Under the pieces are notes generated by a model. That model did not search any database. It was not told the DNA's origin and was given only the letters and a program-made list of their open reading frames with translations. DNA of 61,727 bases, the filler included, from Choristocarpus tenellus KU-1152 (taxonomy: Eukaryota; Protista; Phaeophyceae), in the NCBI GenBank assembly GCA_964200185.2. It is 10 parts of 10 records of this genome, joined end to end, with 100 filler letters (N's around TTAATTAATTAA, not from the genome) between each part and the next. Parts side by side here need not be neighbours in the genome. Positions count along the whole stretch, not along the records: positions 33,109 to 37,657 come from CAXNAD020014050.1; positions 37,758 to 44,150 come from CAXNAD020008230.1; 8 more parts are not named here. One strand, written 5' to 3'. Each line of letters starts with the position of its first letter. Position 1 is the first letter of the stretch. This document shows positions 28,209 to 53,380 of the stretch, one piece after another. The position numbers and the translations under genes are program-made.

Positions 28209-30717
28209 ATTCAGCACATTCACAATAGCAGCCTTGTTGGGTGGTCAGGTTCGTTTAACCTTCCACCTTTTGGATGTGGTGATGTGATCTGTAAGGGCTG
28301 GGAATGCAACCAACTGATCTCCTTGGTACAAGCGAGGGCCAATCAGGTGCGGAGGAGGAATCAAGACTTGCTTTGATCACAACCAATTCACAGCAGTGTA
28401 AATAATAGTATGAACCGGTGGTTGTTTTTCTCTGTCGTGTAGTGGTTGACCTCATTTTGATTCATATTTTCAAGCTTTTACTCTCTATTCTTGATCATAC
28501 CTCTAATGTTCATTATGTAGCGTGGCAAATCAGACTTCCTTTGCATCAGAAAATATGCTTACTGAATCGGGGGTGCTTAGTAATCTTGTATGAGATATCT
28601 CATACTTGCTATTGTCTTCTGTCACTCCTTACGCCTTTTGTTGAGGATGACCTTTGGTCAAGCGATTACCAGTATTTGATGCAGGTCTAGTTAGGTTTTG
28701 CAGGGTGTTCCAATGGTGCAAGATGGTCCGTACAGGGATGTGTGGTATATATTTTTTAAGATTTATGTCATCCTAATTCTTGCCAACCAAGGGTCTTTTT
28801 GTTGCAGAAAAAAATGTCAACCGGTAAGTCCCGCCACCCCTGTTTCAAACAGCGATGAGGAGTCTTGTTTGTGTTGACTCTACTTCTCTTGAGAAGTACT
28901 AAATTCCTAATGATCATGTTAGCTTTCTCTACCCTGGTTTTTGCCTCAAACATTAGTACCCAGTTTTAATTCTGTTATTTAAATTTCAGCATATTGTGGA
29001 TCATCTGGCGTAGCCTCACAAGCACCTGGAACCCCCTCGTATATTTTTGTCCGCATGTATTGTTCAGGAGAACTTGAGTGCCAAGAAGCTCTTGGAAAAT
29101 ATTCCCACACAAGCCCTCCCATTTCATGGGGCCCCCTTGCCTGTTACTTCAAGCGCAAGCCTCTACCAGGGTCTGGTATGGCCCTCTGAATATGCTACGC
29201 ACATATCTCCGATGACATGCAATCAACACAAGTTGCCAATGATTACAAAAGCAGTTACCAATCAATCTCCTATGGTACTGGGCTGTGATAAACCACCAGT
29301 TAAAGGATCATTAGTGGCTGTCCCACATGTCCTCGGAAATAACAGCCAGTTAATGTCCCCTCTAACTGCTGCTGGCAACCTGCCAGGCTGTTCACCCAGT
29401 TGGGACAAAGTGTCAAAACTCCCTGCAGCACTGGGTCCTCATCGCCTCCAATTCTTCCCCCCCTGCGTTGATACTTCAACAGAACCACTTGGGCCCCTGG
29501 AAACAGCGGGAATGGCCTTGGCACCTGCCAAGTCCGCAGATAAAACTCTTCTGGAAACTCCTTTGTATGACATGGCCAGTTTGCCCCTATTTCCCTCGTT
29601 GCCTTTGGATCAACTGGATGGGAACCCTAGATTGAGGAGAGTGGCGAAGCCAGGGACGTCAGTTGCATGTTCAAGTGTACTGAACTTACCCGTCAATGAT
29701 CAGCCTAGCTTCTACAGCCCTGTACCTTTTGTGCAAGTGGGATCCACACCTATGAGGAATTCGCTAGGTAATGGGGGAATCACTGACAGCACATATCTAG
29801 CTGAGCTTCTCTCTGAAGAAGCAAGGTTAAGATATGGGGCGGGACGGACCAACTTTGGGCATGCATCAGACCAGTCAAATCAATTACAATTCCGTAGATT
29901 GGTGAATGGGGCACCACAGGAAAGATCCTCATCAGTTCATCATGAAAGTATTTCTGAGAGTGGCGGAACTGGGATTGGGGAGGGCCAGGCCAGAAGAACA
30001 ACTGGCTGCGCAGATATGATGGTTGGTGTACCAACCACGTACAAGCTACCTGTAGGAGGCCAAGAACCTATTTTACGGGCAACAAGGTTGTACAATATGG
30101 ATGGGGCCAGTGCTTCTCAGGGTGTTGAGGATCATTCATCACTAAACATTCCTCCAGTGAGGTACGTGAGTGCAGTGGTTGGCACGCAAGGTGCCCCTGT
30201 GTTATCTATACCTGAGCAACAAGTGTCACCCGGTTTTCATCAGCAAGGAGGTGCCAGGATTTTGCAAGCATCATATTTGCAAGAGAGGAAATTGGGGGGG
30301 GGAACAGACAATCATGGCAACTGGAACTCCGTCATGGCTGATCCAACTCTTCAGAAGCTGAGTCGGCAGATTGATCCAACCACACTTCCTTGCCCAGAGT
30401 CCCTTGTACAAGAATCAGGACTTCATCATTGGGGTTCAAATAAAAATGAGATGTGGCTACAATCACATTCAGGAAACATTGCAGAAGGGTCAGGAAAAGC
30501 ACTGAATGTAATGCCGTTGAAGGAACCATCGACTGGACCAAAGACACAGAGACTGTCGGTAGAAGAGCATAAGGGCTTTTTATGTATGAAGGGTGATTCA
30601 AAGCAAGAAATTACGACAGAGGAGTTGACATTGCCAGTACCTCCTGCAGAAGGAGCACAGGAGGGTGGCATGACCAAAGAAGATGCCCTTCATCTTCGTT
30701 CCCTCCTCTGGGAATGA
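28209..30717 (+). CDS. 3' end of an unknown gene: exon 28209-28325 and large terminal exon 29068-30717 (mostly disordered, Pro/Ser/Gly-rich)
   Basis: A 556-codon open frame preceded by a CAG acceptor in phase 0. The upstream 117-nt exon has CAG/GT boundaries. No domain recognised. Confidence 0.65.
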
Positions 30718-33008: not shown

Positions 33009-33134
33009 NNNNNNNNNNNNNNNNNNNNNNNNNNNNNNNNNNNNNNNNNNNNTTAATTAATTAANNNNNNNNNNNNNNNNNNNNNNNNNNNNNNNNNNNN
33101 NNNNNNNNGTGGGTGGGGGTGCGGGAAAAGGAAA

Positions 33135-33166
<32 letters not shown>

Positions 33167-33179
33167 GTTGGGGGGGGGG

Positions 33180-36100
33180 GCTAGAGTTCGGTCATTCATG
33201 AATGGAGATGATTTGGAGGTGTGCGACCGAAGGTGGTGCAAGAACGGCAACCTTATTGTGGCAAACGTTGAACACTCGACGGATCCAACACTTATCCGCA
33301 AGGCCCATAGTCTTCTACGCGACGTATTTGGGTGCCGCACTAGATAGGTTCGGACTCAGGAAGAAAAAAAACGTGTCTACTGCGTGCCAAGAGCGTGACT
33401 CTGCCGTTCATTCTTGACAAATATGTAACGAAGTGCATTCTATGCCAGATTCACATCGATCTTGTAGCCGAAGTCCGTCGTCACCGTCTTCGCAACGAAA
33501 ACGGTCGCCTCATCGGGTCCCATTGCCTTTCCCTGAGGATTGACGGCCTCAGGAAAACATCACTGCGTCTCAAGTGGGACGAGGGTCTGCACCAAGGCTT
33601 CCGGCAGGCAGGAAGGGCCTAGCACGCGTTCTTGAAGGAGAGACGTGGATACCTGCAATCATTTGCGTACATGGGACAGCCCAACCATGTGGCATTCAAG
33701 TGTTTGCCATGCGATAAGGTTACATCACGTACGTAGGGGTTATTCCGGTGTTGGTTCAATATCTTGAGGTGTACCACAGCACGTTTGATTTTCATGTGGG
33801 GAAGAGCCAAAGTATCTTAGAGGGTACGAGTTTTGCCCTGTTTGTCCATTTGGGGCTTGGCTTCCCTAGGGGTTTTTATGACATTTTCCTACTTCAAAAT
33901 GTTTCGGAGTAGGTAAAAGTTATACGTTCTGAAAAGGTTTGTCCGGAGCAAGGATATTGACACTTCCTAACAAACATGATAGCCAAAATTACATCGAAAT
34001 CGCAGCGCTGGATTTTGACCCCCAAATGGACGCGGCTCTACCCTCTAAGATACTTTGGCTCGGAAGAAAGACATTACGATGTACCAACACTCACACACAA
34101 AGTCTTGGGGTCTCGCGATTTCCGTTTGTGGTGTGGGTCACCGCGTGCACTGTGTTAGCAACGTGTAAACATGGACAAGGACACATCGCTACCACAACTG
34201 CACGCCCGACACCTATCCATAGCGAACGAAGACAAACAATAAGTTGGAAAGAAATGGAAAAAAGCCAGCACACCCTTATTACCTTCCTCTTGCCGTCCTT
34301 GTAGGCTCGGCCGAAGGAGGTCTCCATCTTCTCTTTCATATCGCCCTTTGACGCCGCGTTGGACACGAACACCTCCACCCTCCTGCTCCATTCAAGGGCT
34401 GCCTCCGTCACGTTGTGCCTCTCTGACTGAAGGAGATGACGGTGTCCCCAGGATTCGTGTACCTATCATAGGAGGGCAGGTCCAAAACATTTCCTGAGGA
34501 GTACATTGTATTGCGCACGGATTCATCATATGGCAATGTATGAGTAACGTATTGATTCGGGGCAACACAGTCATGGTGCGGTTTGACACGTAACATACTG
34601 ATTCTGGGAAACACACTCATAGTACGGTTTGACGCCCCTTAACCGTCACCCAGCTTGTTGCGTTACTGTTTAACGATGATCTACACCTATACAAAAAAAG
34701 TCGTTGCTCCCATGAAGAAGGGCGTGTGCGACGTAATTAACGAACCTGTCAACGAGGAAGTGGAGGGCCCTCATGGGGATGTCCGTCGCAGCACCTTGGT
34801 ACTCGACGTCACACATGGTTTGGAGCACCAGAGGAGATGGATCACTCCCGTGGCCAAAAATGTCGTCGACGGTGACTCACTTGTTGCACGTGAACTCTGT
34901 ACCATCGTTGTGCGCGAGAAGAATCATGTCCTGGTGGCATTTGAGATGGTTATCAGTGCCTGCGAGAGGGCGCCCCCCCCCCCTTGTCTTGCACATTATA
35001 AGCAGGGGACGATCTTCCACAATCAAGCCCACCTTCGACACCATAAGAGCCCCTGACTGAAGAGAAGGCAGGAGCGAGCGCGTGGGTCTGGCATGCGTCA
35101 AACTTGACAGTAACAGCACACAAGTATGGTATCGTTAAGCTTCATGAAATTGCATACCACTAACATAATAATAGTACAACGAGGGTGGAACGCAAGTCAA
35201 ATAACAAATGCACAAAATAATAGGAAATTCTTTTATAAAAGGAAAGACAAGTAACATCAGCAAGCGATTTGTGGACAAATCAAACAAAGAACTACGAAGG
35301 ACACGGAGGGGAAGAGCAAAAGACACAAAAGGAAATACAAGGTACGAAGAAGATGAAACAACATGGGGAAAGCGAAAAGAAAAGACACAAGACAGAATCC
35401 GCATCTCTTGAACGGCCGCCACCGTTTCCGATCGACACTCGGGCGGACTGATAACGGCCATGGCGGATTGCAATAGTCTCCCGCAATACACCCCGTATTT
35501 CAGCGCTGGCGAACTCTGCAACTCACCGTGTAGGTGGTGAGGTTGCACAGCCCACGGGTGGGGCACAAATAGCGCGATAGTGCCCTGAGGATGTATCTTC
35601 ACCTGCAAGCACTTCATCACCTGGCGCAAGTGGGTGTTGGTCACCTCTTCGTCGTTGAGGGGTCTTGACTCAGCGGTGATGGACACTATGGCAAGCTTTG
35701 GCGCGTTGTAGAAGGCGAACTCTTTCAGGCCGTCTAAGGGTAGTGTTGGGTCGAGAGGGCGAAGGTCGTGTAGTGCAGCATTCTCAGCCCTGGTTGGACA
35801 TCATGACACATGACACAGTACACAGACAGCACGACGAAAAGTACAGCATCGTAACAACGGTGCAGGCAATTTTATCAATAAGTGAGGATCTGATAATATT
35901 TTTCCGGCATCCCCAAAATGTTAAGCCGTACCCTCCACAACGCCAGACCCATCAGATACATCTTTTGGAAGGAGGGGAGACGACAAACAGGTAAGTTCCA
36001 TGGTCCATGGAAACCTCCAAAAAAACGCCATACCGAACACACAAAGGACGAGCAATACACATGATGTACAACCAGCCAAGACCCACGTGCAAACCAACGC

Positions 36101-39100
36101 GAAACTGAACACGCAGAGACGAACTGTATGTCCTTATAATGTGCAACCACGCTGAGACCCACATGCACTTCTCCATGTCCGCCGTTTCGCTGCGTGAGGG
36201 GGGACACAAAAGGCTTTGCCTGCTGGGTGACCCGCCCGCACTCCTTGCGTTACATTTACCCTTACCCTTGACCCTGCCCCAACCCACTGCTGCGTTCCCC
36301 ATCGGTCCAGTCCCTTCACTGCCCTCCTGTGCCACGGGGCAATTGATACACAATCGATCCTTGTCCCTCTCGTCCCACAATATCCACGTTGGCACATTCG
36401 CCCATGTGCGTGATGGAGCACTTTGGGCAGGAACACCTGCCGCGCATGGCATCGAACGAGAGCGTCAAACAGACAGAAGAGCATTTTTCCAAATCATTAA
36501 TTGGGCGCAACAACGCAACGTGGGGATCCACGGCTACAAAGGACCACGAAATTGGCTGCACAAAACAATACAAACTACAGGTGCGAAACAATAGTCGGTT
36601 GCGACATGCACTAACACACTCGGGCTGTGGCAAACAAAGAGACCTGGGGGTAGCGACCGCAGCGCCACACAGAGAGGGACCCCGCCACATCCACTGGTGT
36701 GGTGGCGTGCATTGCTGAAGCAAGACAACTTAGTTATCCGTTCGGGCGATCGGATGAAAACCAATCTTACACCATTAATTACCCGCCATCCGCGTGTGCA
36801 CAACTACAACTACATTACTCACCGAGCCGTAGGTGGAGGATTACATTCAGTACAGCAAACGCCCGCATTCCACTCTCCATGGCCGTTTTGTTCTTCTTCC
36901 GCACCAGGAACGCTGTCGACAGAACCCCCTTCGCCCGTATCCTCCCTGCCTGGCAGTCTGTCCCCTCCCTCGTCTTCATCCTCTCCTTCGTGTTCGTCCC
37001 CTCGGTATTGTTCGCACCCTCCCTTGTCTTCGTCCTCTCCTTTATGTTCGTCCCCTCCCTTGTCCTCGTCCCCTCCTTTGTGTTCGCACCCTCCCTCATC
37101 GTCTTTCTCCCGTCCATCTGATGCCAATCCGTTGTTGCTCTCGACGTCAGCGCCGCCGCCATTACCGCCCCGCCCGCTGTGGATCTCATGGAGGTTAACC
37201 TGGTTGAGGACATCCTGGTATTTCCCATCCCAGGTGGTGAGGTAAGCGCGTAGCGTCGAGTCCTTCTCGAGAATCTGGTGGTGGACACGGCGGAGAACGT
37301 TGTTGAGGAGAGGAGGGGACAATGGTGACGTCAAAAATGGGAGAGTGTAAAGGAAGTACGATAGCATGTCAATCGAACAGAGCAAACGATACGATTGACG
37401 TGGTAAATACGTCTAATGGAGGCGGCTTGCGGGGCGAAATAGTTTGAAAGAAGTCATTATCAAGGATGCCAGCCTGTCTGTAGTTTACGACAGTGACACG
37501 TGTTGGAGGCGGGAACGAGGTACAGATTGACCAAGATCTTGCCCGGAGTTGAAGGCAACGGTTGGTTATTCCCGCTATTAGCAATGAAGCCGAGATCTGA
37601 CAAAACTGCATCGTTTGTTGTAGGGAAGGCAAGTCTCTCGCTCATGATGATGACGAANNNNNNNNNNNNNNNNNNNNNNNNNNNNNNNNNNNNNNNNNNN
37701 NTTAATTAATTAANNNNNNNNNNNNNNNNNNNNNNNNNNNNNNNNNNNNNNNNNNNNCACTCACGGCTCTGACCCGTTGCAGAGGTTTCATTCCGACCAC
37801 CGTCGAGATGTTTGCCCTCAGCTGCCGGACGGGCCCCGCTTGTTGGTCGCCAGATGAAACCTTCTGCAGAAGTTGGGCCACCTCCCTTTTCCTCTCCTCG
37901 TAGTGGGGCTTGACCCAGAGGTCGTGCATATTGCACTTCTCATATGCGAGCCTGTCCATTTCCCTGGTAGCCCGTGCCACATTCACATAACGTCCAAAAT
38001 TCAGAGCAGTTTTGCAACAATCAATAAGTGCGGTGCCGAAAAAGACGCTGACAGTATATTTTAAAATTGAGGGGCGCATGGCGACGTATGGGTGCACACG
38101 AGATACGGAAAAGGCAAAAAAAGATAACCACTGCAACTGCACCATTTACCAACCTTTGGAGCTGTGGTGTCCACTTCTCCTTGGACACAATCTGCCTGGT
38201 GCGCGAGACAACCATCTCAGACATGTGCGCGTCTGATTCGATGTCCTTGTAGTCCCTCGCCGTAGGAACCTTCCCGTTGAACGACTTGTACCTGAAAAAA
38301 GAGAATGGCCATGAAGGACGTCAACAAGAACAATGTGCAGGTAATGATGAGGAAAGGGTCGCCACTGCAGAAAATATTCACGGATCGATTGTCATAGTTC
38401 AGAAAAGACAAGAGCGCACATACACAGGAAACACACACTGTTCGTAGAATTTCCACAATACTACAAAGGGTTCTTCGTTCGACACAACAATGGCTGACTA
38501 CATTCTTCATCGTAGGAGATACGTATTTAACGTTCCTGTGCAATGTGCTGCGACCTGCACACATTGCGCTTACTGCTGTCTACACGATAAAACACAGTGA
38601 TGGTTTGACCTGCCTAGCAAGCAGATGGATGCATAGCCCCTGCTTGAGAAAAGTGAAGCCAGCAAACTCCTCGCAACTCAGATAGTTCAGTGTGACTGCG
38701 TTGCGGTCGATCTGTGATGATGAGGTCTCACACACTTCCTTCAGTACCTCGAAGGACTCTGGTCGAAGGGACTTTACGCCTTGCTGCCAGTTTCGTGGAG
38801 TTGTTTTTGCCGGGGGAGGAACGTTCACCTTCGCGATGGGCAGAAAACGGAAAATATTATGCACCCAGCCAGTGAGGATGAGGCATCGTTATACCATGCC
38901 AACGAGGTATGTATGAGTGGGGGGGGGGGGTTCAGGCAACACCGTCGATAAAATAAACAAGGACGCTTTTTATTGTTCGTCTGTGGTTAACCACACATAC
39001 ATACTACATGGTCACTCGAAAATCAATAAGTTGGTTGACAGGGTTCCTAAACGCGGGATAACTATCTCGACTTAGGTTGAATAGGAGGACAAAGAGAGAT

Positions 39101-40038
39101 TTCACAACAGCTCTAACCCAACTAGAGGAGGAGTAGAGCGCCACCATCCCACCAATGTTGACAACTCCATCAGCTTTTTGTACATTTTGTGGATCTCTAC
39201 TAGTGACTCTTCTTTTTTCTTCGTCTGTTGCTTGATAGCTTCTTCGAGCTCGTGCTGAAAAAATATCTTATCGTACAGCGTGCGCTCAACCGCACTCTCG
39301 GTCGCGTCGTTCAATGCTATAAGCGTGGTCCCACAGTGTAGTGGGCGAATGGGACAAGGGGTAGGTGGGAAGCGGTCGCGGGACACACGCGGCATGCAGT
39401 ACTGAGCCATATGTTGCTGTGGACAGAAAGACCACGAGGGATAAAAAATATCAACAACGAAAAGATCCTCAATGGGCTAACTGACAATGAACCAAACAAA
39501 GGAAACTCGGCAACAACTTCGTACATCAGAAGAGTCATCAGGCGATCATGGAACAACGAAAAAACTCAACTTACTTTGTTGCTTAGTTGATCAGAACGAT
39601 CAGGCGATTATGGAACAACGACAACACTCCATCACCCACCGTTGGCAATTAGCCTTCCTTCTGCTTGGTTGAACTCCATGTAGACCCGCATCACGAAAGC
39701 GTGTTCGGGATCAAACTCTCTATTCATCACCGTTACTCTATGGTTTCCGTCCAGTGTACGTCCTTGAATAAGCAGTCTCGCTGGACTACGACAGACGGAG
39801 CAAACTGCTCCAGCCAGCCTTTCTCGTGGATAAACTTGCTGACGCGCGCAAGGCCACGCTCGCTCAGTGGATGCACCATCTCCGTGCGTGTGATGTTGCC
39901 GAGTTTCATCCGGTACGTGCCGAGGTAGTGGTGTTCTAGGAGTGAGGACATGCCCTTTAGATTGCTGTCCCACGTTCTCGATCCGTGGGCAGCGCCATCG
40001 GCGGTCGGGTGGGTTGTTGTTGAGCGAATGCTGGACAT
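33180..40038 (-). pseudogene. Decayed multi-exon gene: ParB-like domain + helical/HTH-like region + acidic linker + PHD-like finger + beta-class N6A/N4C DNA MTase-like fold (spans linker 37658-37757)
   Basis: ParB motifs V(H)PLSERGLARVSKFIHEKGW..FAPSV and LDGNHRV, then LIAN|ALNDATESAVERTLYDK. Cys/His cluster CSCPKCSITHMGEC...RLCINC. MTase-like LRQVMKCLQVKIHPQGTIALFV, HQDMILLAHN and IPMRALHFLVDR|YTNPGDTVISF...EAALEWSRR. Contains in-frame stops and frameshifts; the 3' limit is approximate. Confidence 0.65.
33804..34061. mobile_element. MITE family A, in an intron of the ParB/MTase-like pseudogene
   Basis: Perfect TIR GAGCCAAAGTATCTTAGAGGGTA; TSD GGAA. Confidence 0.95.
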
Positions 40039-40289
40039 GGCGAAGGTTGGGAGGGTGTGACGGGGATCGATAAATAACAGGTGCACGTGGTATGTACGGA
40101 AGGGAATGAATTGAAATGAGGACTGAGGGACGGCAGGTGCTGCTTTATTTCATCTGGTTGGTCGGTCCTCAAAACTCAGATTTGTCTTTCCGTTGACAAT
40201 TGTGTTATAAAAAATATGAATATCGAACAGCATACGATTTCATATTGGAAAGAGACAGAGAGTAACAGATTTTTGTGACCTTTTCGTTT

Positions 40290-41340
40290 CGTACGTTTCA
40301 AACGTATTGTATCAATGAAGGATGTGGTTTGTATTTGTATTTGTTGATGTAAAGATTAGAATATTATTATTATTTCGTAAAACCCCTAACGCACGTGTCT
40401 TGGGTCTTCAAGGGTTTAGAAGATCAGATCGGATCTTTAAAACTCTATATCCTCTTTTTTGTCGTCTCTAGTATTATTAAGAATCCTAATGTCGCCAAAA
40501 AGCGGTTTTAGTATTTAAATAAATTGTGGGTACCAGTTGGAAGTGACCTTTTAGTTTCTGAAAATTGGAAACGTGTGAGATCCATAAGGTGCGTTTCTTG
40601 TATTTTCAAAAATTGTAAGAACGATTATTACTGGATTTACTATTTCTAAAAATCCTAATGCACGTGTTTTGGGTGTTCAAGGGTTTAGCAGATCCGGATC
40701 CGCTAAACCCAAAGAACCGCGTTTTGTCGCCTCTAGTATTTTCAAGAATGCAAATGTCCAACAATTTAAGATTTTATACTTAAAAAAATTAGAGGGTGCC
40801 AGTTTTTTTTTTACCTTTTGGTTTCTGAACATTGGAAACGTACAAGATCAATGAAGTATGTGCTTCACATTTAAAAAAAAATTAAGTACGGGTATAATCG
40901 GATTTACAACTTCCAAAAACCGTACTGCACGGATTTTCAGGATCATGGATCTCAGGGTTAGCCCACGGATTGCCCGGAGTTCAAAGAAAGTTGGTTTCGG
41001 AACATTGGAAACGTACAATATCAATTAAGTATGTGATTTCTATTTTAAAAAAATTGTAAGTACGGGTATAATCGGATTTACAAGTTCCAAAAACCGTAAT
41101 ACACGGATTTTCAGGATCATGGATCTCAGGGTGGTCCCACAGATAGCCTGGAGCTTAAACAAAGTTGGTTACGGAACATTGGAAAGATACAATATCAATT
41201 AAGTATGTGATTTGTACTTTAAAAAATTTGTAAGTACGGATATAATCGGATTTACAACTTCCGAAAACCGTAATGCACGGATTTTCAGGATCATGGATCT
41301 CAAGGTGGTCCCGCAGATAGCCCGGAGCTCAAACAAAGTT
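40290..41340. repeat. AT-rich tandem array: three ~173-bp units (starting 40827, 41000, 41174) preceded by two diverged ~270-bp units
   Basis: GAACATTGGAAA(C)G.TACAA.ATCAAT.AAGTATGTG and TATAATCGGATTTACAA.TTCC.AAAACCGTA.T.CACGGATTTTCAGGATCATGGATCTCA recur at 173/174-bp spacing. Related motifs occur at about 40560 and 40290. Confidence 0.9.
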
Positions 41341-41414
41341 CATACGCCCGCCTTCGAATCTAATCACTCCTAGACCTTCTCACTGCCCAAGACCGCCTGT
41401 TGCCCGAAAACACC

Positions 41415-43914
41415 ATGACAGTTGCTTCCACAGCAAGGGGGTGGCTTTTGTCGCCTGCGTCTCCCCCTGTGTTGCCCCCTCACCAGCCCACGAACAATGA
41501 AGCGCTGGAGCTTTCTACCAATGACGCTTCAGCGACCGGCGCCAAGCTTCGCCGAGGATGGGCTGAACCCATCCTGGTCAACGAATAGGGTGACTGCTGC
41601 AAGCGCTTAGCCTGTGTGAAGAAGTTCGCGGCAGATAGCGAGTCCTTCCTTGCACGCACGTTGGCCAAAGAGCAGGACATCATCCGGGCGTGTGAGAACC
41701 GCCGCGATCGTAAGCACTTCGTTGGTGACCGTGTACCTGTGACTAAGTTGGGTCCTGGAGGTGGATCTATGCTCGCGGCCGGCATTCCCGTCTATGCGCA
41801 GTTTCTCAAGGCATCGTTCGGAATATCCAATCATGTCATCGACGCTTGCAAAGGCACACCTAACGCAAGAGCATCCACCGGCGTGGAGAGGTGGGTTTGA
41901 TATATGTACACAGTGTTATTTTTCCCCGGTATATTTTCCCCCCTGCTTGATGATTGAACAGTAGTCCTATTTCAGAACAATGTAATCCGACCGTACTCAC
42001 CACATTCACTTTGCAGTTACCACGCCTAAATGTCTGATATTCAAAGTTAAAGATCCCTCCAGCATGAAGTTATGTGTTACCTATGTGTGTATATACACGT
42101 GCGATATGTTTTTTTATGCTTCAACAATATCATCTCATCCGACCGTCCCCGCGCTGCTGCAGCAGTTACCACGTGTAAATATTTTCGGAATTAGAGATCC
42201 GCTGCTGACATACGATCCCTCTAGGATTCCATCCTCCGTCCCTTGTATCCACCTCCAACACATCTCCCATCCATTTATATACATACGTGCGCTACTACAA
42301 CAGGAACAGCACGAACAAAGATAGGGACATGGCTCCGAAGATAGACTACTGGGCTGATACATATGGGTAGTTCACGCCTCACAAGTCCACAATTGTGATC
42401 TACGGTGCGAACAAAGAGGTAGGTTTTGCTCTTGGTTTTGGAGAGGTTGGCCGCACCCTGTGTTGGGAGTTAGTTGCAAACCGTGTGACCCAGCAGTACG
42501 TAGAAGAGGTGGATCGAAGTAGCATTTCGAGTGGTGGATGTTTATTACTTCAACCGGTATGATGTTATGGTTAAAAGAACATGTGAAGATTCGTACCAAG
42601 GGCTATTTTTTTCGTTTGCTATTTCGAGACTACAATGTTGATGATGATACTCTTCGTCGCATTTACGACGGAAGACACACTAACTGTTATCCGTGTACAC
42701 CTACTCTGCGGCCCCAGGCCCGGTCTGACATTGGTAGCAAAAGTGTGTACTTCGTATGTCTAAAGCGCTTCACGATGAAGATGATGATGATGATGATGAT
42801 GATAGATTCGCCTCCTTTGCCGCTTCTGCAAACGGTGGCAAGGCCCGAACAGAATGACGCTCCTGGCAGATTTACGAAGATCATTGTATTTGCTCTTTCG
42901 TAACGCACGATGTAAGCTTGCTTGACCCTGTCTTCCGCGTTCTCAGTCAAGTTATTGGTCAGCCTGCCTTCAAGAGATTTTGCAGGGGTGTTCTTCGAGT
43001 GTTCCTTCTCAATAACTCCTCGCTTGCCCACACAACCAACATTTTAAACTAGGAGCTATACAAGGATTTTTGCAAAGAGGTAATACGGGTGTATCCTGAC
43101 GACCCTTCCAAGCAGGTAAGCAGGGCGCACTTCCTCCGATTGCTCAGAGAGGACAGGCCCAACATCAGGGTGAGGGTAGGAGGCGAGTTTATGAAATGTG
43201 ACATATGTGTCACGTTAAAAGAGAAGCGGCATGGTTCGCCTGGTGTAAAACCCACGAACGACTCCACCGTCCTTGACTCCATTGATAAGGGGCTATCAGA
43301 CCATCGAGAGGTAGGTGTTCAGCGTTAATTTTGCAACAAGCGTACAGTGGCAACATGTCGCCGTCATTGCCCTCCATTGGGAAGAACATCTGTTGCCTTT
43401 TGCGAATGAAGGCTCCCACGCAGGTGCTTATGGCAGCAGCAGCAGCCTCACTCACCGCAAAAATGTTGTTATTACCTGCCCAAACATCTTGTATGATAGA
43501 CTGCTTCCTGGTCGTCTACAACGGGATGTAGGAGGGACAGGTCATGTAGCGGCCTTCCGGCCCCGTACGTACGTACTTCCTACCATCCCGATAATACTGT
43601 GTTTGTAATGAACGCAGCAATAAAAAACATATCCAAAGACAATCATTTATTGTTACCTGCACTCCATTTTTGTTACTAACCTGGGACGTGTTAACAAGTG
43701 GCTGGTTTATTTGATTTACAGACGTGATGTTGCTCTCCCCCATTCGCCAGATTATCCAAGCGGATTGGCTGGTCATCGCCAACAGCACCAGCAGCGCCAT
43801 GCGGGCCAAAGCCGACGGCAAACCTCTCGGCTTTGTGTTCATGTCCGTAGACGTCGCGAACCAGACAGCACAGGCCCTCCCAGCACTTTACCCACCTACC
43901 CACGGCGGTGACAG
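41415..43914 (+). pseudogene. Sola1-type DDD transposase relic with introns (exon-like 41415-41890, 43053-43310, 43751-43914); 3'-truncated by contig end
   Basis: N-terminal CCKRLAC and GIPV(Y)AQFLKASFGIS. Middle ELYKDFC...VSRAHFLRLLREDRPNIRVRVGGEFMKCDICVTL...DHRE. First catalytic Asp region FMSVDVANQTAQALP, compared with DG[AM]DQ...LP. In-frame TAG at 41586-41588. Confidence 0.7.
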
Positions 43915-44091
43915 GTAATCACACGCACGCATAGTTCATCTGACAACAAGTTTGCAGCCGCACGCGGAACAGAATAGACGACCATGTTTTATTCTACGGA
44001 TGATTGCAAAGTCCCAAGAAATAACCGCTAAAACAGACGCACATAATTCCACTACCTATTCCGTTCATCATGATGACGACACACCGTAGAA

Positions 44092-44150
44092 GAGCCAAAG
44101 TATCTTAGAGGGTAGGGCCGCGTCCATTTGGTGGCCAAAATCCAATGTCG
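44092..44150. mobile_element. MITE family A, truncated at contig end
   Basis: GAGCCAAAGTATCTTAGAGGGTAGGGCCGCGTCCATTTG. Confidence 0.88.
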
Positions 44151-44500
44151 NNNNNNNNNNNNNNNNNNNNNNNNNNNNNNNNNNNNNNNNNNNNTTAATT
44201 AATTAANNNNNNNNNNNNNNNNNNNNNNNNNNNNNNNNNNNNNNNNNNNNAAACACTACAATGCCCTCCAAAACATCTATTCAAAACATAGCTCTCCTGT
44301 AATAAAAAATAAATCAACATGGCTGACACCACCCCCCCCCCCCCCAACTTTTCCTGCACTGCTGACCATATCCCACTATCATGTCTACATTTCTTGTTCA
44401 CACCCATTTTTTGAGTACTTCCCTCCTCCTCATCCCCCCCCTCCCGCCTACCTACACACTACAAAATTGGAAAGTACCGGTCATCCTCAGAGTGGTTTAC

Positions 44501-51211: not shown

Positions 51212-53380
51212 GAGGGGGCGTACCTATATAAGAGAGGGTAGGGGCAAGCGAAAAACCCCTCTTATACCCGATCCTCTCTTATTGTATATAAGAGTGATTT
51301 TCTCTTAAACCGAGGGATTATGATAAGAGAAACCTATGTTATATTGAGCAACAGTGCTCGTAGGCACTTTATACTTGTCCCCGATCGATGACAGAACGAC
51401 GCCCTAGCTGTATGTGCTTCTCCTGTGCCTTCAAGAGTAGTTACATGTAGATATGTATTGAACATTACCCTCGGTGAGTCCATTTCAATGAAGCTGTGGT
51501 GGTGCAGCAAGCACCACATCTACACCACCCCTTGACAGTATACCAGCTTCGTATGTATATGCAGTAGTGTAACTTTGGTAAATTACACTCATTGCAATGT
51601 ATTCATCCATATGTATGGTACACCTTCCCAAGAAAAGCATCTGCAAGCTGTTGGATGGCTGGATAAACGACTCACAGTTCAAATCAAATCAAAGTTTAAA
51701 GCCAATCTTCCTCTAATGCCCTGCCCTACGTATTCAATTGCACACTACAAGCATAATATACAGTACGGTATCAAAAACGCCACCATATATCAAATACACC
51801 TGCACCGCCAAGCACCCCATCGTACGCACTGAGTAAAATAACTTATTCACTAATAAAAAAATTACGACCGCCAATAAAATCGTGAATGCCTCTAGTTTGA
51901 TTGCCCTTGCCTCAATTGGGCTGAGCCAAGCCAGCTTTGCTTTCCAGAGATAGTATGAAACATCGTTCATGCTCCACTCTTCTGTGGTGGTTTCTAAGCT
52001 TGCAAACTCGTCAGCTACTTGAGAGTATACGGCGGTGGAGGAATCGAGAACACTGAAGAGGCTACTCCTTTCTCTTCACAGCCCCCAATGAGCTGCCCCC
52101 TCTTATAAACCCATCGTCATCCTCGTCACCCAAGCTCTCATTGTCTGACTGCTACAAGGATTCCTCGAGCAGCTGGTCTTTCATGTTCTCTAGTACTGCA
52201 TTGGCCACTTCATCCTTGTCTTCCACACCAATCCACGTTCTCTCTGTGTCGATGGAAGCCTGAGACGGTTTTCGGTCGGGCTTGAGGTCCAGAGCGTCAA
52301 GAGCATTGGAGATATCCTCACTAATATATAGGGACACCTTGTGGGACGTACCTCTACTCGCAAAATGACCACCCGTGATATTACTACTGTACACAGTACA
52401 GACATTACAGTACGACAGAAATGTGCGCAAAAACAAAACAAAACAAGCATGATCCTTATCTGCAGACAGTGCAGAAAGATAATTCAATCACAACCACAAT
52501 CACAATCAACCTGCTTTCAGACTTTCAATCCACGCGCTGATGCATCTCGACGTATTTGACACACCCCTCGTAGACTTGGCATCAGGCATCAGCGTCTGCG
52601 CTTTCTCCATACTGGTTGTTGTCTCCTTCAACTTGTAGAGGGTGCTGTGACCAATTCCAAACCTTTGAGCAACTACAGTTTCCGTCATGGTCTTCAGGAG
52701 GGTCGACGCTTCCACCTTCTCTGCAAAGCTTAAGCATTTTCGATTTTCGGCACCGCGAGGCTTGTAGGACGCAACTTTCTCTGTAGATTTATTTGGCAGC
52801 ACCTTCCCCTTGCCCTTGTTCTTGCTATCGTGGCGCTTTGACACCATGTTGTCACCAGGTGGAGGACCCAAAGCCCTGCGCTTGGTGGGGCTCACGCACA
52901 ATTTACACACGTGTTTCATTTCGCTGGCGCCAAAAAGAACCCACGACGCCGCAAATGCCATGAAGATAGCCACTACAAATGCAACACTTATGGCATGTAT
53001 AGTTTGACGGACCAGGAGTACTACACTGTATGTTGCAGCTGGATCCCGGTGCGCAGGGCATCGTTATATCTGTACAATTCAGTCGTCTAAACTTGATATG
53101 TGCAGTACTGAAAGGCAAAAGATTGGTATGCTGTGTTCTGGTCGTTTGAGGAGGTTTGTACCTTTGTTATATTTTGCTTAACTTTAGACATGAGTTTTTG
53201 GGAAACTCGTTGGTCAAGTGGTGAAAAAAAAATGAGAGTTTGCTCGTATAAGAGAGAATTGGCAGGAAAAAGTCAAAACCTCTCTTATATATAGCTTGAA
53301 AAGTGGTGACAAGAAAATTTTCCCTCTTTTATATCCCGTTTTCTCTTATATCGACCTCTCTTAAATAGATACACCCAGTC
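51212..53380 (-). mobile_element. Internally deleted pogo/Tigger (Tc1/mariner superfamily) element
   Basis: TA on both sides. Imperfect TIR GAGGGGGCGTACCTATATAAGAGAGG versus GACTGGGTGTATCTATTTAAGAGAGG (reverse complement), with subterminal CTCTTATA repeats. CENP-B/psq-type HTH RKCLSFAEKVE...VAQRFGIGHSTLYKLK. No DDE core visible. Confidence 0.8.

Follow-up and report, generated by a model that had tools for sequence, protein, structure and literature searches.

Among described systems, the closest to the locus reported here is Sola1-1_Ec32, a 21.5-kb transposon of Ectocarpus in which, according to the accessible part of Dinatale et al. 2025 (PMC12477816), a gene for an 1104-amino-acid protein with a ParB-like domain and an N4-cytosine/N6-adenine (N4C/N6A) methylase domain lies opposite the transposase; the paper's table calls this accessory gene Ectocarpus-specific. 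Red-algal Plavaka and other transposons carry PAG3, a ParB domain joined to a 2-oxoglutarate (2OG) oxygenase, and PAG2, an N6A methylase joined to a SET domain, as far as the available text of Petroll et al. goes (10.1101/2025.02.11.637652). Here we analyse a window of 61,727 nucleotides (the whole stretch of DNA studied, ten joined parts) from the brown alga Choristocarpus tenellus KU-1152 (GCA_964200185.2), in which a block of two adjoining parts (CAXNAD020014050.1 and CAXNAD020008230.1) carries a decayed minus-strand gene for a ParB-like protein. On balance, we probably see here the dead remnant of a brown-algal gene that has ten exons and many copies, likely an accessory gene of a giant cut-and-paste transposon, whose product would have combined a ParB clamp, a helix-turn-helix (HTH), a zinc finger and a dead methylase.

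As the published description has it, Sola1-1_Ec32 is matched by the present locus in its brown-algal host, in the union of ParB-like and amino-methylase domains in one gene, in the opposite strand and in the large size of the element; the Choristocarpus gene differs in its length (about 870 amino acids), its missing methylase motifs and its relatives in at least seven genera, and the two are likened by description only. With PAG3, so far as that source describes it, the gene shares its place as transposon cargo, the ParB-like domain and adjacent tandem inverted repeats, whereas partner domain and host lineage differ from those of PAG3 and PAG2, and the red-algal methylase is on a separate gene. 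The bacterial cytidine triphosphate (CTP) clamps ParB, Noc and KorB (7bnk, 6sdk, 8qa9) have the same fold plus HTH, with Box I R/S/G, Box II GxxR and Box III N in common; unlike them, the algal protein has DGNHR for GERR, a replaced hydrolysis Glu, 11-18% identity and no ParA partner, and it is spliced and fused to a finger and a methylase fold. The methylase-like domain resembles beta-class amino methylases (M.MboIIA, CcrM, M.BceJIV) in fold and motif order and the inactive METTL14 in its disrupted active-site motifs, with no active partner subunit known here; METTL14 and ParB-linked phage methylases are both treated in the consulted portion of Iyer et al. 2016 (PMC4738411). A possible functional analogy, at the level of the summaries available, is VANC of the Arabidopsis VANDAL transposons, an accessory protein that counters silencing of its own element. 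Our literature search found no experimental test of ParB proteins of eukaryotic transposons and, outside subscription papers, no report of ParB with an inactive methyltransferase in such transposons. Green-algal versions are reportedly covered by Iyer in 2011. The gene architecture is already published; what the sequences appear to add is the pairing of kept nucleotide-contact residues with lost methylase motifs.

Structure and decay of the gene

The gene spans 40038-34283 on the minus strand, and with its deleted piece restored its ten exons (2570 nt) would encode about 870 amino acids. Contig evidence comes from four runs of one study, which may itself be the source of this DNA; the joints seen in one of them, run X3, attest spliced forms, not expression.

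39640..40038, minus strand: exon 1, predicted ParB/Srx nucleotide-binding domain, with a 40-nt deletion at 39769; GT donor at 39639
39174..39316, minus strand: exon 2, carrying Box III Asn and helices; CT instead of GT at the donor that follows; run X3 joint 38828-39174
38614..38828, minus strand: exon 3, predicted HTH, then a GC-AG intron; run X3 joint 38290-38614
38154..38291, minus strand: exon 4, helical domain, placed by homology
37765..37963, minus strand: exon 5, helical domain, placed by homology; gap 37658-37757 in the next intron
36823..37274, minus strand: exon 6, long helix, linker of acidic 18-bp repeats, first zinc-finger Cys pair
36163..36436, minus strand: exon 7, a Cys/His finger that is PHD-like by motif, with a basic linker; reading frame shifted near 36370
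35527..35789, minus strand: exon 8, start of the beta-class methylase fold, with SITA at the motif IV position
34746..35052, minus strand: exon 9, middle of the methylase fold; in-frame stop at 34879
34283..34462, minus strand: exon 10, degenerate methylase motif I/II region; frameshift near 34425; more exons possible

Exons were placed from splice motifs plus homology, and relatives in Undaria, Ectocarpus and Cladosiphon carry the match to 34283, seven exons past the 38610..40038 extent given in a preliminary description of this DNA. Introns 2 and 3 equal joints in run X3 contigs, and the remaining introns rest on homology and GT-AG ends; no exact joint for intron 1 was present among the best 15 of 77 contig rows. 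The splicing proposed in that description was borne out, in that exon 1 ends at its GT donor, exon 2 follows an AG at 39316 and TTPRNWQQGVKSL lies within exon 3. Exons 6-10 lie beyond the assembly gap, both sides of which are covered by single relatives (P0001, P0003 and P0025). Intron 3 (38613-38292) is of the GC-AG type, in agreement with the run X3 joint; an Undaria gene model continues uninterrupted across this site. The PHD-like label of the Cys/His finger is given by motif, and the finger is absent from one Ectocarpus subfamily.

Both overlapping minus-strand frames previously reported are present, with stops at 39733 and 39632, one reading MVHPLSERG...APSVVV and the other LDGNHRVTVM. 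They are 81-82% identical to a 525-amino-acid C. tenellus gene model (E 3e-57, far above chance), and a protein search with the first frame went from 67 candidates to this paralogue as its single match (81% identity). When the paralogue was aligned to the window, its residues 91-103 (13) had no counterpart there; what breaks the frame is a deletion of 40 nt (13 codons) at 39769. Two run X3 contigs spanning the site carry the extra letters, in each of the four runs contigs break off at 39769 from either side, and the deleted form was seen in none of the 32 contig pieces listed out of 875. An assembly error at this position is possible, and the analysis of the rest of the gene would be unaffected by it. 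A tiny intron was also considered at the break, where GT/GC-AG pairs of 11-56 nt restore the frame; this candidate was rejected because relatives are longer there, with 13 more codons, not fewer, so that there is no intron to remove.

The deletion is one of five lesions, the others being the CT donor at intron 2, the frameshifts near 36370 and 34425, and the stop at 34879. The conserved Box I Arg is changed to His and the Box I Ser to Phe; at the Ser codon the other letter is carried by all depth in all four runs. The window copy is dead, a pseudogene. Of the earlier proposal of an intron-split domain hidden by a frameshift, the introns and the frame break stand; the break itself is not an intron, and the hiding is plain decay with no special mechanism.

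The ParB-like and methylase-like halves

For the Cladosiphon relative P0025 (843 amino acids, 126-row alignment), modelling gave a high-confidence fold over residues 22-433, with a predicted local distance difference test (pLDDT) score mostly above 90 in the N-terminal half. Foldseek matched this model to ParB 7bnk (E 6.5e-5), and VIA gave Z scores of 10.7 to the same structure (root-mean-square deviation (rmsd) 2.1, 94 residues) and 10.0 to the domain plus HTH of KorB 8qa9 (rmsd 2.8, 141 residues); ParB, Noc and KorB ranked first and sulfiredoxin next (Z 8.6). For the fold of this domain, an Atlas model of P0001 gave template-modelling (TM) scores of 0.59-0.68, and PHROG yielded only weak ParB-like matches (best E 0.006). 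By the KorB match, a central HTH is predicted to follow the nucleotide-binding domain in P0025, and the models of relatives are thus in line with the ParB/Srx-fold domain with HTH called at the outset.

The CTP contacts of Myxococcus xanthus ParB (R54, S68, G73, R95 and N127, as given in the consulted part of PMC13229309) were mapped by spacing onto about 100 relatives. The first four are largely kept (R in 86/99, S in 80/100, G in 89/102, R in 87/97), and the Box III Asn at the N127 position is present in all 12 spliced members, the raw column reading 12/85 where fragments run into the intron. Similarly, E or K fills the column after the exon 1 end in 74% of rows, presumably because single-exon fragments read into a shared intron donor.

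In the C-terminal half, residues 597-812 of P0025 gave a VIA Z of 8.4 to M.BceJIV (rmsd 3.0, 127 residues) and M.MboIIA (rmsd 4.8, 138 residues). A separate Ectocarpus C-terminal model (pLDDT 42) matched CcrM (E 7.3e-5), M1.HpyAVI and METTL3-14, and language-model features scored 0.92 to N6_N4_Mtase clusters. We take the canonical signatures to be [DNS]PP[YFW] for motif IV, FxGxG for motif I and an acidic motif II. The strand that bears DPPY in the matched structures ends here in CLNR, NVGA, SIGA or SITA, so that motif IV is canonical in none of the four sequences covering it; none of the three sequences that extend far enough has the Gly-rich S-adenosylmethionine (SAM) loop or, following the next strand, the acidic residue. 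A scan for the canonical motif pattern found none in the family proteins examined, most of which are fragments short of the methylase domain, and the methylase part of P0025 used as a query retrieved only itself, one of 3210 candidates (463-1476 amino acids). Since the three subfamilies covering the domain stand apart in the tree described below, the loss of motifs is likely old, with the fold kept. Quite likely, the domain is a pseudo-enzyme; its catalytic motifs being missing, the protein likely binds rather than methylates element DNA.

The probable surrounding element and brown-algal relatives

The gene shares its block with an array and a second gene:

33109..44150, no strand: whole block, about 11 kb, with assembly gaps at both ends; CpG observed/expected ratio (o/e) 0.89 and 0.95
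40190..41390, no strand: tandem array between two genes, three 174-bp and two related units of about 268 bp
41412..44090, plus strand: decayed, spliced transposase-like gene with stops at 41586 and 43050 and frameshifts, cut by a miniature inverted-repeat transposable element (MITE) and by the gap at 44151
33804..34061, no strand: MITE-like insertion, 258 bp, downstream of exon 10 and outside the element proper

The ParB gene and the transposase-like gene stand head-to-head with the array between them. The latter has GT..AG joints at 43308-43749 in run X3, and its Cys pair and following strand make it a candidate Sola1-like transposase by motif resemblance, with no library match. Related contigs are many (8969, 6557, 1051 and 338 in the four runs, most 90-99% alike), and they cover 30 of 30 bins in each run, spanning both genes and the array. 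Each 174-bp unit contains an imperfect inverted repeat (40916, 41090 and 41264); its three occurrences, with none in the window outside the array, may be candidate binding sites. The array itself is covered by many contigs in which unit joints vary, and no dispersed intron palindromes were found in the element. The flanking segments contain host genes (phosducin, axonemal dynein light chain and a DEP domain). Bounded by terminal inverted repeats of 23 bp, the 258-bp MITE-like repeat occurs in the 62 kb as eight near-full copies and one partial copy (at 2487, 16392, 18685, 19177, 19795, 26990, 31966, 33804 and 44092; 82-90% alike), two of which sit inside the element.

CpG o/e in the two segments of the block exceeds the 0.36-0.69 of the other 9 of 11 segments, and reaches 0.96 in the introns inside the element. 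The host segments are depleted of CpG (0.31 in the long open frame at 29014-30714) with TpG/CpA raised, a pattern indicative of CpG methylation now or formerly, which is unusual for brown algae; DNMT1 is reported among them in Discosporangium only, in the accessible text of 10.1101/2024.02.19.579948. The contrast fits protection of the element, and also its youth. The open frame at 29014-30714 (plus strand) has 567 codons, low complexity and no Pfam family; elsewhere, 52155-53063 (minus strand) shows a weak CENP-B-type HTH (E 0.005), probably a pogo-like transposase remnant, in a segment with CpG o/e of 0.69.

A three-sequence profile searched against 1.84 billion proteins returned 190 at E up to 0.001, of which 150 were listed, mostly exon-sized. 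Twenty clusters were looked up, and each of the 13 that carry a name was brown-algal (Ectocarpus, Cladosiphon, Sphacelaria, Pylaiella, Scytosiphon and Choristocarpus), relatives were found in at least seven brown-algal genera, and the ParB-like domains had a median pairwise identity of 28% (89 rows). The tree (91 rows, 114 columns, midpoint root) was built without a prokaryotic outgroup and is not used to name a donor; rows P0038, P0044, P0047, P0059 and P0089, probably misaligned fragments of other exons, were disregarded. It consists of several deep clades, with Ectocarpus in three and Pylaiella and Sphacelaria in two each, and several deep subfamilies per genus are what is seen in transposon families. 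The window's nearest paralogue clusters with Sphacelaria, Undaria and Ectocarpus (support 100/99). As judged from these alignments, the pattern supports long residence, spread over lineages of transposons and not as a single gene of the host; the eukaryotic, spliced and long-resident nature supposed from the window alone agrees with it.

Two side observations concern the relatives. The Ectocarpus gene model P0116 fuses a ParB exon to what looks like a piece of a hAT-type transposase, which hints at transposons of other classes as further carriers of the cargo. Residues 30-270 of P0001 have language-model features scoring 0.89 to a fungal DUF3723 cluster, and DUF3723 gave a weak match in 2 of 126 relatives; it may be a fungal counterpart, and the literature search found no paper treating DUF3723 and ParB together.

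Competing explanations and possible function

There is little doubt in our minds that the gene is decayed transposon cargo. Were it a domesticated single-copy host gene, with a frameshift that came from misassembly, from a very short intron or from programmed frameshifting, the failure to see the deleted form among the contig pieces listed would be readily understood; four further lesions, changes at conserved sites, the extra codons of relatives and thousands of related contigs make this highly improbable. An integrated giant-virus gene or a phage-derived contaminant is scarcely credible: nine introns interrupt the gene, host genes flank the block, and relatives were confirmed in none of 27 pattern matches in viral contigs, none of 99 metagenome contigs and none of 50,697 phage records, the broad family alignment having no stretch conserved enough for scanning. 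What speaks for such an origin is the enrichment of ParB-methylase fusions in phages, reported in the available portion of PMC12704722, together with the structural resemblance to ParB-like proteins of viruses, at 9-16% identity.

Within transposon cargo, the question is what the intact protein did. It was proposed for Sola1-1_Ec32, in the consulted text of PMC12477816, that such a protein is an active N4C/N6A methylase marking its own transposon, and the beta-class fold, the N or S at the first motif IV residue in 3 of 4 sequences and the length of the Ectocarpus protein (1104 amino acids against 843-876 here), which may carry intact motifs, are in keeping with this. The Pro-Pro-aromatic of motif IV is nevertheless absent in 4/4, and the SAM loop and acidic residue in 3/3, across three subfamilies, so that we consider an active methylase improbable. 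A role of the ParB-fold half in transposition (end pairing or transposase loading), or as a nuclease or kinase, with no chromatin protection, appears somewhat less unlikely, if still doubtful. The GxxR motif is of the DGxHR kind, as in non-partition members, the hydrolysis residues are unlike those of ParB, weak GmrSD_N and DUF1015 matches occur in 4 of 126 relatives each, and the gene is head-to-head with the transposase-like gene. Against this, the zinc finger and the kept methylase fold suggest a protein that binds chromatin or a DNA mark, ParB, Noc and KorB plus HTH (Z 10.7-10.0) rank ahead of sulfiredoxin (8.6), and such a gene is lacking from many DNA transposons that nonetheless move.

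Our tentative proposal is instead that the intact protein clamped onto its element and protected it. The HTH would recognise the inverted repeats in the intergenic array; on binding nucleotide, the dimer would close and could then spread along the element in the manner of ParB/KorB. The finger and the dead methylase domain might hold chromatin or DNA at the element, which would be kept open to transcription or transposition with no methyl mark written. It is a speculative and rather unlikely extension that, since before the class first split, brown-algal transposons have carried a nucleotide-gated ParB clamp with a histone-reading finger and a dead methylase. Loaded at the array of its element, this clamp would spread across some 10-20 kb and shield the DNA from silencing, a parS/ParB scheme turned to sequence-specific anti-silencing inside a nucleus.

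Several observations weigh against the preferred account of a transposon-borne clamp with a dead methylase. Both folds were modelled on relatives, not on the window copy, and the models of the methylase domain are poor (the pLDDT of 42 for the domain alone, mostly below 65 in the full model). The preliminary description had named a ParB/Srx hit as its check; ParB was matched at the level of structure, but there was no sequence-profile match, Pfam giving no ParB family for the pieces, the intact paralogue or among 25 families listed for 126 relatives, and likewise no family of methylases for the pieces or the relatives. Solved structures, searched by profile, gave neither ParB nor methylase. 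Motif positions derive from structure-aligned ranges plus the usual residue numbering. The hydrolysis residues are not kept, the E93 position being N in 81/102 and the Q52 position variable; in the parts of the sources consulted, nucleotide type is held to be unreadable from sequence (PMC12704722), and these residues are dispensable in phage ParB partners of T-dioxygenases (PMC13229309). As regards the element, the plus-strand gene at 41412..44090 had no Pfam or other database match, and both ends lie at gaps, so that the terminal inverted repeats and 4-bp target duplication of a Sola1-1_Ec32-type element are not in view. Palindromes in the element are not enriched over the flanks, and perfect palindromes in the array number 2 against a shuffle mean of 2.3. 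Youth, or methylation confined to gene bodies, may account for the CpG contrast, and private C-to-T changes fell at CpG in 7/18, with 22% expected (p 0.09; best 40 of 1924 rows).

The preliminary description was right in its hint at transposon-borne ParB proteins and ParB-methylase fusions; the five lesions, the many-copy transposon-like block, the C-terminal zinc finger and methylase fold and the published gene kind had escaped it. The window copy is a fossil, and the significance lies in the family, where tests could draw on near-complete members (Cladosiphon P0025) and on a candidate array for binding. The sole brown-algal report found (PMC12477816) takes the methylase, in its accessible text, to be active. 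Should the nucleotide pocket be functional and the methylase dead, self-methylation as proposed there would be wrong, and a ParB-like clamp on chromatin would become a testable idea.

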